Shown: one piece after another, positions 23,569-61,968 of the stretch
Position numbering within the stretch: the stretch's first letter is position 1
Layout of the letters: the number at the start of each line of letters is the position of its first letter
DNA from: an uncultured delta proteobacterium
GTDB taxonomy: Bacteria; Desulfobacterota; Binatia; DP-6
DNA: 64,000 nt
Assembly: GCA_963815115.1 (NCBI GenBank)
Contig: CAWFFN010000008.1
Location: 672,001 to 736,000, forward strand
Direction of reading: 5' to 3'
Made by a program: the position numbers and the translations under genes
Notes under the pieces: model-generated
The model's database searches: none
What the model saw: only the letters and a program-made list of their open reading frames with translations
Told to the model about the DNA's origin: nothing

Positions 23569-23838
23569 ATGGCGCGCTCCTATCCCGTCCATGAGGCCAA
23601 GGCGAAGCTAAGCGAGATTCTTCGCAAGGTGAAGCGGGGACGTGGCGTGGTGATCTCGGACCGCGGACGAGAGGTTGCCCGCGTTGTCCCGATCGAGACG
23701 CCGAAGGCGCTCGGCGAGCGTATCGTCAGGTTAGAGGAAGAGGGGTCCATTCTGCCGCGAGACGGAAGCGCCATGCTGATCAGGCCCGTTGCACGTCGCC
23801 GGGGAGCCTTGCGCCGCTTTCTCGAGTCGCGGGCGTGA
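23569..23838 (+). CDS. Phd/YefM antitoxin
   Basis: YPVHEAKAKLSEILRKV..VVISDRGREVARVVP. Confidence 0.88.
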   Translation: MARSYPVHEAKAKLSEILRKVKRGRGVVISDRGREVARVVPIETPKALGERIVRLEEEGSILPRDGSAMLIRPVARRRGALRRFLESRA

Positions 23839-24227
23839 GTATTGCCTACCTGGACACCTCGTTTTTCATCGCGATCGTCCTCGGGGAGCCCGGGGCCGCC
23901 CGCCTGCAGCGGACCCTCGCCGCGCAGGATCGCGTCCTGACGGGCGATCTCCTGGTCGCCGAGGCCCTTGCTGCAGCAGTGCGCGAAGGAGTTGAAATCG
24001 AGCTCCTGCGTCCGGCGCTGAGTGCCGTCACGCTCGTGCTGCCCTCACGATCCCTCGAAGAGGAGATGCGGCAGGCGCTCGAGTTCGGCCGGCTGCGCGG
24101 CGCGGATCTCTGGCACGTCGCCTGCGCGTTGTTCGTGGCCGGGTCCGCGCGCGGCGAACTCAGGTTCCTCTCGCGTGACAGCGTGCAGCGGACTGTCGCG
24201 AGGAGACTGGGGTTCCCCACCCCGTGA
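23835..24227 (+). CDS. vapC: PIN-domain toxin
   Basis: YLDTSFF, LRGADLWHVACAL, FLSRD; GTGA overlap. Confidence 0.85.
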   Translation: MSIAYLDTSFFIAIVLGEPGAARLQRTLAAQDRVLTGDLLVAEALAAAVREGVEIELLRPALSAVTLVLPSRSLEEEMRQALEFGRLRGADLWHVACALFVAGSARGELRFLSRDSVQRTVARRLGFPTP

Positions 24228-24365: not shown

Positions 24366-24438
<73 letters not shown>

Positions 24439-24635
24439 CTCTCGGGCGTCAGCCTGCCGGTCGAAAGATGGTGATGGCGCCCTCCAGGAGGGATGCGCTC
24501 ACGTCGGTGCGGCGGAGCAGGGTGTGGAGCATCGAGAAGATGAAGCTTGAGTTCGAGGCAGGGCTGGCCGCCGCTGGACGCGCCCGAACGGCAGTGGAGG
24601 TGAATCTCTGGCCCTGAGTCGCGCCGAGCGGGAAC

Positions 24636-26530: not shown

Positions 26531-26713
26531 GCGCGCAGCGCCGGCAGCCACCTTGCGCACGCTACAAAACAGCGCAGGGCGAATGGAAAACGGCCATGCT
26601 CGCGCGGAATCATCGCGGCGGCTGAAGCGAAAGCGGAGCACTGGACAGCGGCCGCCTGGTCGCTGGAACGCCGCCCTCTCCAGGATCAGAGACGACCGAG
26701 ACGGCAGAGAGGA

Positions 26714-27421
26714 TTACAGCCGTACCGTGTACTCCATGCCGTCTCCGAGGAACAACGTCACCGAGAGAAAACCGTTGAGGGGATCCTGCACGTACGCGAC
26801 GTAGGGTGCGAGCGCCCACCGAAACGTGAAGATATTGTCGGCCAGCACCACGGCGCCCCGCCGCAGACCAGGCGTGAGCATCTTGAGCATCGAGAGGTAG
26901 AGCTGCTTGAAGCCATCGAGGAGCACCATGTCGACCGTCCCGCCGGGATCCTTTAGGGTCTCCTGCGCGTCCCCTTCGCGGATCTCGACGAAGGTACTCA
27001 GGCCGGCCTCCTCGAGGTTGCGGCGCGCGGTCGCGACCTTTCCCGGTTCGAGTTCGGAGCCCACGACGACACCGCCGCCGTTGTCGCGCACCGCCGCGGC
27101 CAGGTACGTCGTCGAGATGCCAAAGGAGGTGCCGAACTCGACGATGCGTTGAGCGCGCAGGGAGCGCGCGACGAGATACAGGAGCTGGCCCTGCTTTGGC
27201 GACACGGGCACGTAGAGATCCTTGAGACGCTCCACCTCCTCCGCCACGGACGGTTCGTGGCCACGGAGCTTGTCGCCGACGAATGACCCCAGCAGACGGA
27301 CCAAGCTCAGGGTTTGCTTGCCCGCGTCCGCGTGCAGGCGATCGAGCACCCTCCGGACGCGCGGGTCGGCGATCGCGCACGGCGCACGGCTCGACGAGTC
27401 CTGTGGGCCGCGTCCGCGCAA
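26714..27421 (-). CDS. Class I SAM O-methyltransferase, 5' end interrupted by IS256
   Basis: VEFGTSFGISTTYLA, GDAQETL, LLDG, LADN; native start MTQD lies at 28727 beyond the IS. Confidence 0.85.
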   Translation of the reverse strand: MRGRGPQDSSSRAPCAIADPRVRRVLDRLHADAGKQTLSLVRLLGSFVGDKLRGHEPSVAEEVERLKDLYVPVSPKQGQLLYLVARSLRAQRIVEFGTSFGISTTYLAAAVRDNGGGVVVGSELEPGKVATARRNLEEAGLSTFVEIREGDAQETLKDPGGTVDMVLLDGFKQLYLSMLKMLTPGLRRGAVVLADNIFTFRWALAPYVAYVQDPLNGFLSVTLFLGDGMEYTVRL

Positions 27422-35594: not shown

Positions 35595-35849
35595 CCGCGT
35601 GGTGGAGCCGCAACCGGCGGGCGTCTCGGGACCTGCTTGCCAACGAGCTTGATCGGGCGCTGGAGCTAATCGAGCACGTACCCCAGGCCGGGCGTCGCAC
35701 GACGAGCAAGCTCTTCCGTGATGTCTGCCGTCTGCTCCTCCGGAGGAGTGGGGTATCACCTCTACTACCAGCTACTCGACGCGCAGCACGCCGTCCACGT
35801 CGTGTACTTCCGCCACGCTCGCCGACGACCGATCACCTGGCGGAGATGA
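35595..35849 (+). pseudogene. RelE/ParE toxin lacking its start
   Basis: WWSRNRRASRDLLANELDRALELIEHVPQAG..RLLLRRSGYHLYY..VVYFRHARR. Confidence 0.7.
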
Positions 35850-35951
35850 GTCCGGGGGTCAACGCGTCGGAACGTACATTGGCCACGTCAGTGCTCACCT
35901 GCGGTTTGCAGGCGGGTTTCTCCGGCCTACCGCCGGTCCGCCGGGCTTCGA

Positions 35952-36154
35952 GAATCAGTAGGTCAACGCCTCCACCCGTCCATCGGTCAGTCTCCATCCA
36001 GTCACCATGCCGATGCCTGCCGGTGCCTGCCGATGGGTGAGCCTCGACGGGTAACCCTCGAATCTTCCGAGACACGGCCACCCGCCGGAACCTGCCGGCA
36101 ACCTCCTGCGTCCTTTCGTAATCAGTAGGTCGCCGGTTCGACTCCGGCGGGTGG
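35952..36154 (+). repeat. ~200-bp att module, copy 1 (ends in 40 bp identical to the tRNA-Thr 3' half, 36115-36154)
   Basis: Aligns with 61763-61964; TTCGTAATCAGTAGGTCGCCGGTTCGACTCCGGCGGGTGG equals 24397-24436. Confidence 0.93.
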
Positions 36155-36159
36155 GGACC

Positions 36160-36400
36160 CATGACCTCCTGCCGGCGGACGACGCGGGGATCGCCGACGC
36201 GGTCGTCTGCGCCACCTTCCTGCGCTTCAAGGGACTCGAGCTGCCGGCCGTGGTCGTGACCGACTCGGGCATCGCGAACACCAAGCGCGAGGTGCGCCTG
36301 TACATCGCGCTCACGCGCGCGCTGGACCTCGTGCGGATCGTCGCGGACGAGACGACGATTGGGCAAGACCCGTTCTTCGCGAGCTCGTCGGGACGTGACC
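36160..36400 (+). pseudogene. UvrD/SF1 helicase C-terminal fragment
   Basis: TFLRFKGLELPAVVV..LYIALTRA; begins right at the att. Confidence 0.75.
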
Positions 36401-36424
36401 GCGGACGGCCTCGTACCCCCGTCG

Positions 36425-36597
36425 TCAAGGCACGACGACGAATCCCTCGCGCCGCGCGGCCTCAGCGAGGTGATCGTCGAGGGTGACGAAGCGAAGCACG
36501 TCGGAGCACTCGTCGCACGCTACTAGCGCGGCGGCGAGCTGGAGGGCATCGGCGGCTCGCAGAGGATGCGCGGCGAGGAGCCGTCGGGTCGCCGGTA
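36425..36597 (-). pseudogene. PIN toxin C-terminal fragment
   Basis: RLLAAHPLRAADALQLAAAL..FVTLDDHLAEAARREGF. Confidence 0.75.
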
Positions 36598-42469: not shown

Positions 42470-43035
42470 TCAGGTGTCTACCCGGCCGGGGGCAAGATCA
42501 GGGAGGCTGCAATTGCGAATGGGCACGAGATTCCTGGCCTTCCCGGACCCGTTGGGCCAGCGGGGCCGACCGGGCCCAGCCCGAAACGGCTGGAAAGACC
42601 CGTGGGGGGATTCTCGAGCGTGCGGCGATGGCCACAGGTCGGAGCGCCGAACAAACCTCCATCGTCCCTGGGAAAATCGGCAATCCGCAGCGCGCGGGGC
42701 CGTGTTGCGTTATCCCGTTTCTGCTACCGCCGCCGAAAAACCGTTGCCCGCAAGGGCCAAAGAAGCTTCCCAAGCTGGACGTCGCCGGTTCGACCGCGGT
42801 CGCCCGCTCTTCGTAAGCGCCGTGATTATGTCGGAATCCTCGACCAATTCGGACAGGGGTAGATTTTCGCGGGTGGATTCGGACAGCCGTTCAAGCCGCG
42901 TGAGCGTTCGGCAGGCGCCCCTTCGTGCGCAACCTGAACAATCGGCTCAACGTGATTGATTTCGGCGGGCTTTTTTCCGGCAACGCGATTGGGCCGGCGC
43001 GGAGCGGGTTCGTGCGGCTCACCACCAGCTTCTAG
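42470..43035 (+). pseudogene. Degraded 3' end of a TonB-dependent receptor-like gene
   Basis: Terminal NLNNRLNVIDFGGLFSGNAIGPARSGFVRLTTSF*; upstream frames broken. Confidence 0.5.
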
Positions 43036-48762: not shown

Positions 48763-48937
48763 GCTTGCAAACTGCTTGCAAACCGTAGCGTACATTGAGT
48801 GACAAATGCGTCGCGGGCACACCAGGAATCGCCAGGTCGTCTGACGAGAATCGTAGCGGAGTCGCGGTATTGGCGTCCCACGAGGTGCAAATGGTAGCGA
48901 TATGCTGACACCCGCCGGAGCGCTTCGTAATCAGTAG
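48763..48937 (+). repeat. Second-type att remnant
   Basis: GCTTGCAAAC x2 (48763, 48774); CACCCGCCGGAG (reverse complement of the tRNA 3' end); core TTCGTAATCAGTAG at 48924. Confidence 0.7.
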
Positions 48938-49061
48938 TTTTTCATCGGCCGGGCCGACCCCGCGGGATGAAGCGTGGGGAGCGAGCGCGCTAGGATTGGC
49001 CGTGGCGACGGCACAGAGGTCGGCGACGTCCATGGTGCGCAGAGCCCGTTCAGTAGTTGGA

Positions 49062-49320
49062 CCTGTACCGCCCGTGCGCATCCAGGCGCTGCGCGACCTC
49101 ACGCGCACCCGCAAGCAGCTCGTGCGCGAAGTCGCGCAGCACTCGCTGCGCATCCAGAAGGTCCTGGAAGACGCCAACCTCAAGGTCGCCAGCGTCCTCT
49201 CCAACATCCTCGGCAAGAGCGGGCGCGCCATGCTGGCCGCGCTCATCGCCGGCGAGACCGATCCCGAGCGCCTCGCCGCCCTCGCGCAGGGGACCGCCCG
49301 CCAGAAGCACGCGGCCCTGG
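49062..49320 (+). pseudogene. IS110 transposase internal fragment
   Basis: PPVRIQALRDLTRTRKQLV..RIQKVLEDANLK..GKSGRAML. Confidence 0.85.
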
Positions 49321-49324
49321 GGAT

Positions 49325-49481
49325 GGTGCGTGCCCACTGCCGCAAGGGCCCGAGCGCGCGCTCGACACGCTCGAGCGGCCCCGCCGGGCTGCGCGCCACG
49401 TCGATTGCCTGCTTGGCCACGTCGATGCCGATCCATACCGGTCTCCCCGCCCGCGCGGTTCGATTCCCCCCCTGCCTCCAC
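49325..49481 (-). pseudogene. IS110 transposase N-terminal fragment (different element)
   Basis: VWIGIDVAKQAIDVA. Confidence 0.75.
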
Positions 49482-49917
49482 CTAATTTCGCAGAGGCTGT
49501 TGAGAGGCTCCCAGCCGCAGAAAGGCCCGGTTCTACAGGCCGGCGCGGCTCCAGATGGTGTGTGCGGGTGATCCTGAATCCTGCGCGTCTTCCTGGATGA
49601 GGAAGGAGCCCCGTCCAGGTGACCTGAGCTCGAACGATCGAGAGCGCCCTTGCGGCTCCAGCCGCTCGCCGGCATCGTGCACGTCCGTGGATCCGGGGCC
49701 GATTCGAACGATGCTCGCGCGCGGGAAATCGGGAGGTCTCGGCGTCCCACGTCGAGGAATCGCGCGGGGCGTAGGGGCCGATATCCGCGTGTGTCGCTCG
49801 CGGTTCCTCCGGTACGCCACGGTGAAACGTCCTTACGAGGGGCGGCGGCACGATGTTCGCGAGCTCGCTCCACTTCCTCGCTTGCCGTTGGAGCGTGCCA
49901 TTCCGGTCCCGCACCCG

Positions 49918-60731: not shown

Positions 60732-61217
60732 TCACTCTCCGACAAGCGCAGAGGCGGCATCGAGTAGGCCGGGCGTCACGTACATGCCGACGGCAGCCAG
60801 ACGCTCCAAGACCGGCCGCGCTGCCGGAACGGCCCCCAGCCGCTTGGCTCGGAGCACGACTCCGATCGTCCCGAACGCCGGTACCCCAAGCGCGGCAGCA
60901 CAGCGTCGAGCCTCGCGGTCGTCCAGGATCGCGTGGGCGCCGGGCAGCGCCCGTGCTACCGCGAGCACCGCCGACTCTCCGGCGCCCAGATTCCACGCAG
61001 CGATCGCCGCCGGCACGCTACCCGGGTCGACTCTCGTGGCCCACGTCGCGCGCAACAGTGCTTGCGCCGCCATATCCTCACCACCCTTAATTTCCACTTC
61101 ATCCACTACGGAGACGGGAACACACACGATACGCGCCACTGATCGCAGGAGTTCCAAGCGTCCGATTCGCGACAGCAGGATAATCGGGGAGGCGTTGACG
61201 ATGGCCTGCTCAACCAT
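60732..61217 (-). CDS. DUF3368 PIN-like toxin
   Basis: NASPIILL, LGAGESAVL, LDDREARR, GTIGV. Confidence 0.88.
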   Translation of the reverse strand: MVEQAIVNASPIILLSRIGRLELLRSVARIVCVPVSVVDEVEIKGGEDMAAQALLRATWATRVDPGSVPAAIAAWNLGAGESAVLAVARALPGAHAILDDREARRCAAALGVPAFGTIGVVLRAKRLGAVPAARPVLERLAAVGMYVTPGLLDAASALVGE

Positions 61218-61461
61218 CGCCCAGTTCGCGCGGAAGTTCGTCCGGGTCGACCTGCACTACCTCGATCCGGCGAGCGGCAAGCGCGTCGATGAAGTCCGCG
61301 CGGGGCACCCCCGCGATCTCGGCCGCACGCCCCTGCGACAGCAGGCCGCGTCGATACCAATCGACGGCAGCCGCCAGTCGCACCTCGGCCTGCATCTCGA
61401 CGGGCGAGCGATGTAGTGCTGCCAAGAGGTCATCTGGGAGGGCGATCGTTACGGTCGTCAT
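61210..61461 (-). CDS. UPF0175 antitoxin
   Basis: LAAAVDWYRRGLLSQGRAAEIAGV.RADF. Confidence 0.88.
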   Translation of the reverse strand: MTTVTIALPDDLLAALHRSPVEMQAEVRLAAAVDWYRRGLLSQGRAAEIAGVPRADFIDALAARRIEVVQVDPDELPRELGDG

Positions 61462-61762
61462 CCTGATCTCCTTCGCTGAGGCCGCCTGGGCGATCACGCC
61501 CGGAGCTATTGTCACCGAGCGAGTCACTCGTCGGAAACCCCTTGTAGCACAGGAGACGCGGGGCCGCTCTGCCGGGAGTGCGGTGAGCATGCCAATCGAG
61601 GAGTCGGAAGCGGCGGTAAAAGTGGGTGAAGTCCTCGGGCCGTTCAAGGCCGCCGGGCCCGCAATGAAGGCAGGCAAGGCCCATACGCGCCGTGCCGACC
61701 TCCCATGGGCGGCTGAAGGCCGCGCCCGCCAGCAGCGTCGCGGCACACTCTCGCCGCGCGTG

Positions 61763-61968
61763 GAATCAATAGGTCACTGCCTCACCTGCGCATCGGTCAG
61801 TCTCCATCCAGTCACCATGCCGATGCCTGCCGGTGCCTCCCGCTGGGTCAGCGCCGACGCGTAACCCCCGAATCTTCCAAGACACGGCCACCCGCCGGAA
61901 CCTCCCGGCAACCGCCTGCGTCCTTTCGTAATCAGTAGGTCGCCGGTTCGACTCCGGCGGGTGGCTCT
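61763..61968 (+). repeat. ~200-bp att module, copy 2 (44 bp identical to 24397-24440 at 61925-61968)
   Basis: Direct repeat of 35952-36154 at an offset of 25810 bp. Confidence 0.93.

Follow-up and report, generated by a model that had tools for sequence, protein, structure and literature searches.

Among the closest described systems are the attP and attR arms that lambda-type tyrosine integrases use at tRNA genes, as in mycobacteriophage L5 at tRNA-Gly and P22 at tRNA-Thr(CGU). The present analysis concerns a module of about 165 bp, here called M (positions 35952-36114), in a 64-kb window (C8:672001-736000) of the 6.9-Mb assembly of a GC-rich soil bacterium (G000). M lies downstream of a tRNA-Thr(CGT) gene and is directly followed by a repeat of the 3' half of this gene; the range flagged in an initial annotation of the window, 35952-36154, comprises M plus this tRNA half. 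To judge from the sequence, M and the adjoining tRNA half appear to be the P-arm-plus-core side of an attachment site, that is attR, or attP when the element is excised. M resembles the arms of the lambda-type systems in that its identity segment spans the anticodon loop to the tRNA 3' end, that tandem arm-type repeats, also present in the other arm, are placed some 110-125 bp away from the core, that periodic repeats stand between arm sites and core, the usual position of excisionase sites, and that in a relative (G006) the integrase gene adjoins the tRNA gene. It differs from them in that its 32 core-proximal nucleotides are an inverted tRNA 3' half, that a second core-type half-site bounds it, and that no integrase accompanies the six copies in G000. 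The inverted tRNA half inside the arm and the second half-site at its outer edge set it apart from these arms; no account of a mirrored tRNA half in an attP was met in a limited literature search, and prior publication is possible.

Integron attC sites are imperfect palindromes with R and L boxes that are recognized by IntI-type integrases. M shares with them an imperfect palindrome in the range of 60-140 nt with which every stacked unit ends, but conserved R/L boxes, covariation and a neighbouring IntI-type integrase are all lacking, and one half of its palindrome is a segment of a tRNA gene. Cis-mobilizable elements (CIMEs) are units flanked by att sites that carry no recombination or transfer genes, and the tandem ssrA islands of Dehalococcoides reportedly retain their own integrases, unlike the array in G000. 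In streptococci, site-specific accretion and CIMEs of integrative and conjugative and integrative and mobilizable elements (ICE/IME; reviewed in PMC5704250) likewise give tandem att-delimited units without recombination or transfer genes beside a conserved site; G000 differs in being a GC-rich soil bacterium with a tRNA gene as target. The Dehalococcoides islands (PMC3146451) resemble the array in being stacked at a single small-RNA gene, the 3' end of which is repeated where each island ends; a mirrored arm like that of M is not known from them.

The module at tRNA-Thr(CGT) and an intact island in a relative

The sole tRNA gene of the window (ARAGORN) is tRNA-Thr(CGT) at 24366-24439, which from sequence reading is the probable attachment target and would mark the attB/attL side; this gene, the parts of M, its second copy, the collapsed remnant and the stray tRNA-Gly half described below are given on the forward strand. 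Two further copies of the 3' part of the gene, which extends from the anticodon loop TTCGTAA to GGGTGG(CT), are found at 36115-36154 and 61925-61968 (repeat family D3). M begins at 35952-35965 with a core-like half-site, O' (GAATCAGTAGGTCA), which has 12 of 14 bases in common with the core, is a direct repeat of the core's AATCAGTAGGTC and coincides with a boundary of homology. Further to the right stand two tandem 11-bp sites with a spacing of 11 bp (35988-36008; CAGTCTCCAT at 35988, CAGTCACCAT at 35999), predicted to be arm-type integrase sites from the recurrence of their motif in G006, and then 10-bp periodic TGCC repeats (36008-36033), consisting of two tandem RTGCCTGCCG units and shorter partial units, which are a candidate excisionase or bending-protein site. 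The degenerate core at the start of the module, the 11-bp-spaced repeats and the TGCC periodicity had all been reported in the initial annotation, and sequence reading bears them out. A conserved block GAATCTTCC (36060-36068) precedes the mirror (36077-36108), an inverted imperfect copy of tRNA positions of about 39-73 that covers the acceptor 3' strand, the T arm, the variable region and the anticodon-stem 3' strand of tRNA-Thr. The palindrome centre CGTCCT and the anticodon loop TTCGTAA (36109-36121) form the probable crossover region, and the direct repeat of the tRNA-Thr 3' half (36115-36154) is the right arm of the palindrome.

A second full M with its tRNA 3' half is found at 61763-61968 (mirror 61887-61918, repeat 61925-61968), and the two window copies are 93% identical across 182 nt (repeat family D1). 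In addition, a collapsed remnant at 48907-48937 reads ACCCGCCGGA-GCGC-TTCGTAATCAGTAG, that is 10 nt of the mirror, GCGC and 14 nt of the core, with unrelated sequence beyond CAGTAG; it had been placed correctly, near 48909-48920, in the initial annotation. An open reading frame (ORF) at 48996-49568 with a weak, fragmentary match to an IS110-type transposase adjoins this remnant, the core of which is cut after CAGTAG.

The nature of these parts is suggested by G006, which carries an intact phage-like island of 10 kb with an M-like arm. In this island, tRNA-Thr is followed by a P' arm of about 115 nt with CAGTCACGGT and TCAGTCACTAA, a convergent gene for a tyrosine integrase of 456 aa (PF00589 at 2.1e-18, phrog_1 at 1e-49), genes for an HTH_17 protein, a primase-like protein and a terminase large subunit, the M-like arm, a tRNA-half repeat and a truncated integrase of an older unit. 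In the 18-kb locus of G006, the motif CAGTCNCNNT has six matches against 2.2 expected, all of them near att sites: four at distances of up to about 400 bp from attR and two no more than 140 bp from attL. On the attR side two are tandem in the M-like arm and two are inverted about 240 nt further in, and the P' arm, between the tRNA and integrase genes, has one exact match with an adjoining near-copy and one inverted match. Recurrence of the 11-bp motif in the opposite arm, beside the integrase gene, argues that the 11-bp repeats are arm-type integrase sites, and hence that M is the P arm of attP or attR. In the array of G000, 11 of 12 matches to the arm motifs fall inside M copies, and integrase fragments adjoin M in three other loci (L054, L046, L047). 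In non-tRNA copies of the tRNA half in relatives, identity starts exactly at TTCGTAA in 7/7 cases, whatever the arm, which places the crossover at or near the anticodon loop.

The inverted tRNA half and the module family

When 36077-36114 was aligned with the reverse complement of the tRNA 3' half a score of 16 was obtained, which none of 1000 shuffles reached (mean 4.3, standard deviation 1.75), in agreement with the inverted copy of the tRNA end that the initial annotation had seen left of the crossover. The tRNA 5' half was rejected as an origin of the left segment, the score of that alignment being reached by 993/1000 shuffles. The mirror consists of 13 outer matches, a differing stretch of 5-6 nt at the T-loop position, and then CCGGC, ACCT and CTG, which together make about 25 of 33 positions. 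In copy 1, 12 of the 13 outer positions form a perfect inverted repeat (36078-36089 with 36143-36154) and the thirteenth, G36077, faces G36155; in copy 2, where the same arrangement had been annotated at 61887-61965, the perfect arms measure 13 bp (61887-61899 with 61953-61965). A 12-bp inverted arm alone is within chance, simulated windows containing a mean of 2.4 such 12-mers and a maximum of 8; the whole mirror exceeds chance.

As the initial annotation had thought possible, an 87-nt stretch folds on both strands into a single long imperfect hairpin, with energies of -24.9 and -28.8 kcal/mol as DNA (z -3.8 and -5.4) and of -48 to -53 kcal/mol as RNA (z -5.0 to -5.5 on both strands), and in neither case did any of 200 shuffles fold as well; the M-like arm of G006 reaches z -6.4 when folded as RNA. 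When the tRNA half was held fixed and the left 45 nt were shuffled, M copies and G006 displayed a cooperative pairing of -5 to -13 kcal/mol (z -2.2 to -6.2). In six other P-arm families at tRNA-Thr the mirror is absent (-0.2 to -3.7 kcal/mol, z +2.0 to -2.0), as it is in five tRNA-Gly(CCC) arms (z -0.04 to -1.55), and this rules out the mirror as a general feature of arms at tRNA sites. Also among its nearer relatives the mirror varies: G006 retains CACCCGCCGGAACC but has a broken inner stem (CCGGC to GCAGC) with half of the mirror lost, and still folds (z -3.5), and a variant in L038/L045 keeps O', the arm repeats and the core without any mirror (z -0.7 as DNA, +0.6 as RNA).

Covariation was analyzed in an alignment of 18 full M copies, which gave 17 distinct rows. 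None of 25 mirror pairs has a compensatory change; 91.9% of the pairs are paired and 500/500 column shuffles do as well. As the right arm is a tRNA gene, covariation could hardly arise. Mutations of the left arm that break pairs are tolerated, the two outer pairs being broken in 4-5 of the 17 rows. With no compensatory pair, half of the mirror broken in G006 and none of it in L038/L045 or the six other arm families, the outcome that the initial annotation had named as speaking against its proposal is largely seen, and the attC-like hairpin gained no support. The conserved hairpin structure that characterizes integron attC is not found, given the lack of covariation and the loss of structure in L038/L045, and no PF00589 match that could represent an IntI-type integrase next to the array is present in the window or in the 116-kb region. 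The same annotation had considered a tRNA mimic. ARAGORN makes no tRNA call on M, Rfam (35800-36300, E up to 10) gives no tRNA match, a plastid motif (E 0.61) and a miRNA (E 4.5) being taken as chance, and a cloverleaf has no real covariation; this proposal gained no support either.

A BLAST search against the genome reveals six M copies in G000, all on C8 downstream of tRNA-Thr and within a 113-kb stretch: c1 and c2, the window copies, at 707.9 and 733.8 kb, c3 at 746.5 kb, in which the tRNA half is replaced after TTCGTAAT, c4 at 770.7 kb, the inverted c5r at 780.3-780.1 kb (C8:780119-780323), and c6 at 796.6 kb. The full tRNA 3' half directly adjoins M in five of the six, and in 18/39 copies overall; next to the final tRNA-half repeat, at 809.4 kb, stands another kind of arm, with a homologue in a genome of the same genus. 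Copies outside G000 were gathered with a pattern built from the arm repeats. This pattern led to M at 32/32 loci (32 contigs) in soil metagenomes and at one of two matches in assembled genome contigs, on a contig of a metagenome-assembled genome; a match at L036 was a chance match within unrelated sequence and was dropped. No match to M was obtained in plasmids or phages by blastn, and the arm pattern hit 0 viral contigs in IMG/VR. Among 40 other related genomes an extended M match is present only in G006, and 25 order-level genomes yielded only two short partial matches, in G001 and G010. A locus of G001, which belongs to the same genus (L071:1500-1550, on G001:C15), looks like a decayed and shortened M remnant, in which the arm repeats are fused to GAATCTTCC and no tRNA half adjoins. 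The G000 copies differ pairwise by 9-14%, except for c4 and c6, which are 98.8% identical. Their nearest neighbours include metagenome copies as close as the G000 sisters, those of c1 and c3 being outside G000, and this fits separate acquisitions of the M copies. Contigs of four read runs all hold M pieces with the right flank and end at about 36108-36115; no excision joint was seen in these contigs, which break at just that place.

To obtain a footprint of the module, the non-consensus fraction was calculated over 33 close M copies. It drops from 0.48 in the left flank to 0.086 in O', a sharp boundary of homology, and the left core-like edge thus seems to behave as a recombination boundary. 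The spacer after O' has a fraction of 0.32, the TGCC repeats (36013-36042) one of 0.076 and the next spacer one of 0.17; the block GAATCTTCC is at 0.018 against about 0.15-0.17 in the spacers on both sides, with 0.145 in the right-hand one. Conservation of the arm repeats is uninformative, as they were fixed by the search pattern. In the mirror, the outer part has 0.035, the loop 0.131, the inner part 0.021 and the centre 0.028, which puts it among the most conserved blocks of the family, where spacers range over 0.13-0.32. M is therefore a set of conserved blocks set apart by variable spacers. Of 36 copies that could be scored, 30 keep the mirror with no more than 2 mismatches, among them 8/8 with something other than the tRNA half on their right side, and hence the left block is kept also where no long hairpin can form.

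Both edges of M adjoin more than one kind of sequence. To the left, several unrelated classes of flanking sequence occur, and the change from one to another sets in within a few bases of O'. In L046, L047 and L051, detected by script, and in L043, detected by eye, the left flank is the reverse complement of the tRNA-Gly(CCC) 3' half, with a junction ...CCAGC-TTGGGAA-TCAGTAGGTCA that creates a hybrid 7-nt anticodon loop, and the DNA beyond differs three ways; in L047 an integrase ORF reads through the inverted tRNA-Gly half and stops at a TAG inside O'. On the right, 8/39 copies have an alternative flank after TTCGTAAT (L001:10683-10760, that is C8:746683-746760, L047, L049, L057, L062, L064, L065 and L068), which in most copies consists of a near-perfect 12-7-12 palindrome CCGACCCACTGA-CGGAAAA-TCAGTGAGTCGG followed by an AlpA-like gene; in the copy of G000 itself the spacer is TGGAAAA and not CGGAAAA. 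This palindrome resembles an idealised recombinase core, and in most copies it includes a mimic of an anticodon arm, ACTGA-CGGAAAA-TCAGT. The edge junctions fit an integrase family with a half-site TCAGTNRGTC that makes exchanges at both ends of M, an explanation that is incomplete.

Possible functions of the inverted half

We consider it somewhat probable that M and the tRNA half are the P arm plus core of lambda-type tyrosine-integrase islands that insert in the anticodon loop of tRNA-Thr(CGT), and that the mirror is a pseudo-symmetric extension of the core which acts as double-stranded DNA and is made for a protein. On this reading the N-terminal domain of the integrase would bind the 11-bp repeats and an excisionase or bending protein of the AlpA/HTH_17 type would bind the TGCC repeats. 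As double-stranded DNA, the mirror would supply the core of attP with a left half modelled on the right one (CCGGCAACCTCCTG against CAGTAGGTCGCCGG, CCACCCGCCGGA against TCCGGCGGGTGG). On either side of the crossover the integrase or an accessory protein would find the same sequence, which in attB is offered by the dyad symmetry of the tRNA gene; strand exchange may then take place in or beside TTCGTAA.

A number of observations weigh against this. The two half-sites are not equidistant from the anticodon loop, the left one being about 7 nt more remote, the centre measures 14 nt and not the 6-8 of a canonical core, and some 27-40 bp separate the outer 13-bp arms from the centre; it is this odd geometry that keeps our confidence at the level just given. 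Part of the conservation of M is forced, as copies were collected with the arm-repeat pattern, and the mirror is dispensable in the lineages of L038/L045 and of the six other arm families. None of the 18 PF00589 matches of the genome, and thus no tyrosine integrase, lies in C8:696-812 kb, where tblastn with both integrases of G006 (E up to 10) gave only pieces at chance level; the closest G000 counterpart of the G006 integrase shares 32% identity with it and is encoded elsewhere in the genome. No P' arm-type sites were detected to the right of any repeat in the array. With neither integrase nor P' sites, loss would have to be assumed in every unit. A cognate integrase of G000 acting in trans was also considered and rejected, no cluster of arm motifs being found near the 17 integrase loci checked (of 18).

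Several other functions or origins of the mirror were weighed. It may be a relic, left when the tRNA half was long ago duplicated in inverted orientation at the core, for example by recombination of inverted att copies, and owe its conservation to overlapping protein sites or recent descent rather than to symmetry. Inverted att copies do occur in the array, where c5r faces c4, the mirror is eroded in G006 and gone in L038/L045 with the rest of the module kept, and compensatory changes are lacking; yet differences from the tRNA half cluster in the loop and leave the stems intact (13/13 and 5/5), and the mirror block is 4-10 times less variable than the neighbouring spacers, so we regard such an origin as unlikely. 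Rather doubtful as well is an RNA switch, in which an integrase transcript running through the tRNA half into the mirror would form a hairpin, as a processing or termination signal, only when both are joined (attP or tandem junctions), comparable to the configuration-dependent control of lambda sib. The RNA folds reported above, including that of G006, agree with it, the integrase gene of relatives converges on the tRNA half, which the ORFs in G006, L054 and L047 face or enter, and M pieces are present in contigs of one RNA library, which does not prove transcription. On the other hand, neither strand has a U-run after the hairpin, and since the antisense of the intact tRNA has structure as well, integrated and excised states differ only modestly (cooperative energy of -4 to -8 against -8 to -13 kcal/mol); the absence of covariation and of the mirror in L038/L045 also speaks against this idea. 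That the integrase reads M as a single-stranded or cruciform substrate, like integron attC, is very improbable: the long imperfect hairpin forms on both strands as DNA (z -3.8 to -5.4), but 0/25 pairs covary, the partner integrase in G006 is lambda-type with arm sites, sequence reading finds no GTTRRRY/RYYYAAC boxes, the 14-nt centre and internal loops disfavour extrusion, and variants have lost the mirror, which six other arms at tRNA-Thr do not have either. Least credible is a pseudo-tRNA, processed or serving as a decoy, that would be composed of M's GCCACCC, the hairpin and the displaced tRNA half. A cloverleaf can be drawn (7-bp acceptor, GCCGG/CCGGC, CCTGC/GTAGG and T arm) with 92.5% of cells paired, whereas folding to minimum energy gives the long hairpin and not the cloverleaf, 'double changes' are confined to a single variant row of doubtful alignment, the outer acceptor pairs are broken in 4-5/17 rows, and neither ARAGORN nor Rfam calls a tRNA.

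The core-arm-core layout invites a different view of the whole of M, as a miniature element in which the attL and attR arms were fused by an interior deletion, a minimal cis-mobilizable unit that was later carried by neighbouring islands as an extended arm. Two core-type half-sites in direct orientation bound M and the flanks switch sharply at both; the inverted tRNA-Gly(CCC) 3' half with its hybrid 7-nt loop at the left edge, in 3/36 copies and in L043, has the signature of a junction made by an integrase; and the pair of arm sites 22 nt from O' runs in the same direction as the P' pair of G006. However, no copy among 36 occupies a tRNA-Thr gene by itself, and a circle of 165 bp is improbable on mechanical grounds. 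The conserved segment of about 830 bp in c3, c4 and c6 runs across O' and joins a toxin-antitoxin pair to M, and O' may be just one more binding site. We take this origin to be possible but not likely, and the self-integrating mini-element of the initial annotation gained no support, as none of 36 copies with a readable left flank lies behind a tRNA-Thr 5' half. There is a small chance, moreover, that M is a self-contained cis-acting cassette, an attL-attR fusion with arm sites, excisionase sites and a pseudo-symmetric core, by which integrase-less DNA is captured, stacked and reshuffled at tRNA-Thr, and at tRNA-Gly via the left half-site, by an integrase in trans. If so, it would be an integron-like platform for gene accretion derived from a lambda-type att site, and the mirrored half would make the M-core junction tRNA-like and hence both donor and acceptor. 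Taken together, the att module, the mirror of the tRNA end and the core-arm-core layout of the initial annotation stand; for its three functional suggestions, a folded hairpin, a tRNA mimic or a self-moving mini-element, no support was obtained.

The array downstream of tRNA-Thr and its meaning

The 113-kb stretch downstream of tRNA-Thr (C8:696366-809460) contains seven tRNA-half repeats, at 696.4, 708.1, 733.9, 770.9, 780.1 (inverted), 796.8 and 809.4 kb, together with the six M copies and three stray tRNA-Gly(CCC) 3' halves (C8:714767, which is window position 42767, 747482 and 768190). The stray half inside the island of the window (42767-42810; repeat family D3, a 70% copy) is what remains of an att site from a second family of elements. 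The tRNA-Gly(CCC) gene proper is located at a contig end (C9:2-74) and a tRNA-Gly(CCC) repeat starts another contig (C12:5-48), so a second island array probably broke the assembly.

ORFs of the window and of L001-L004 were picked by GC content at codon positions and scanned against Pfam. The units of the array encode metabolic, carotenoid, toxin-antitoxin and IS genes, the IS transposases being of the Mutator and rve types, and no tyrosine integrase or transfer gene was detected among the scanned ORFs. The units are flanked by att repeats and, in the ORFs scanned, lack genes for recombination and transfer, as in accretion arrays and CIMEs. The repeat of copy 1, which is 2 nt shorter than the others, ends where a 111-aa fragment of a UvrD_C_2 helicase starts (36151-36486), and the same junction is also present in soil-metagenome contigs; a truncated helicase fragment at a shortened repeat suggests that the left end of the neighbouring unit was deleted. 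In c3, c4 and c6, a unit of about 830 bp combines a pair with a MazE-type antitoxin and M (C8:745858-746686, 770080-770907 and 795994-796816), and the M of copy 2 is preceded by a UPF0175/DUF3368 toxin-antitoxin pair (60732-61743). A pair of PhdYefM antitoxin and PIN toxin (23569-24224) lies directly upstream of tRNA-Thr, and a Phd/PIN pair is found beyond the G006 island as well. The first and last units of the array share a segment of 853 bp with a methyltransferase gene at 95% identity (26553-27405 in the window, C8:803903-804754).

With M taken as the arm of lambda-type islands, the six copies are read as a stack of successively acquired and decayed islands that lost their integrase ends and P' arms, and the array may possibly contain units that can be mobilized in trans. 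For now, the locus chiefly documents, and documents well, the known process by which islands integrate in tandem and then decay. Should the mirror have a function, an element that targets a tRNA gene would have recreated in its own DNA the dyad symmetry of the chromosomal gene, with implications for the preference for tRNA genes as targets and for the evolution of attP. The setting may matter more than the mirror itself, as a 113-kb stack of integrase-less cargo shares a 165-bp arm that is common in soil metagenomes, and the array is a candidate system for studying how integrase-less DNA accumulates at one site.

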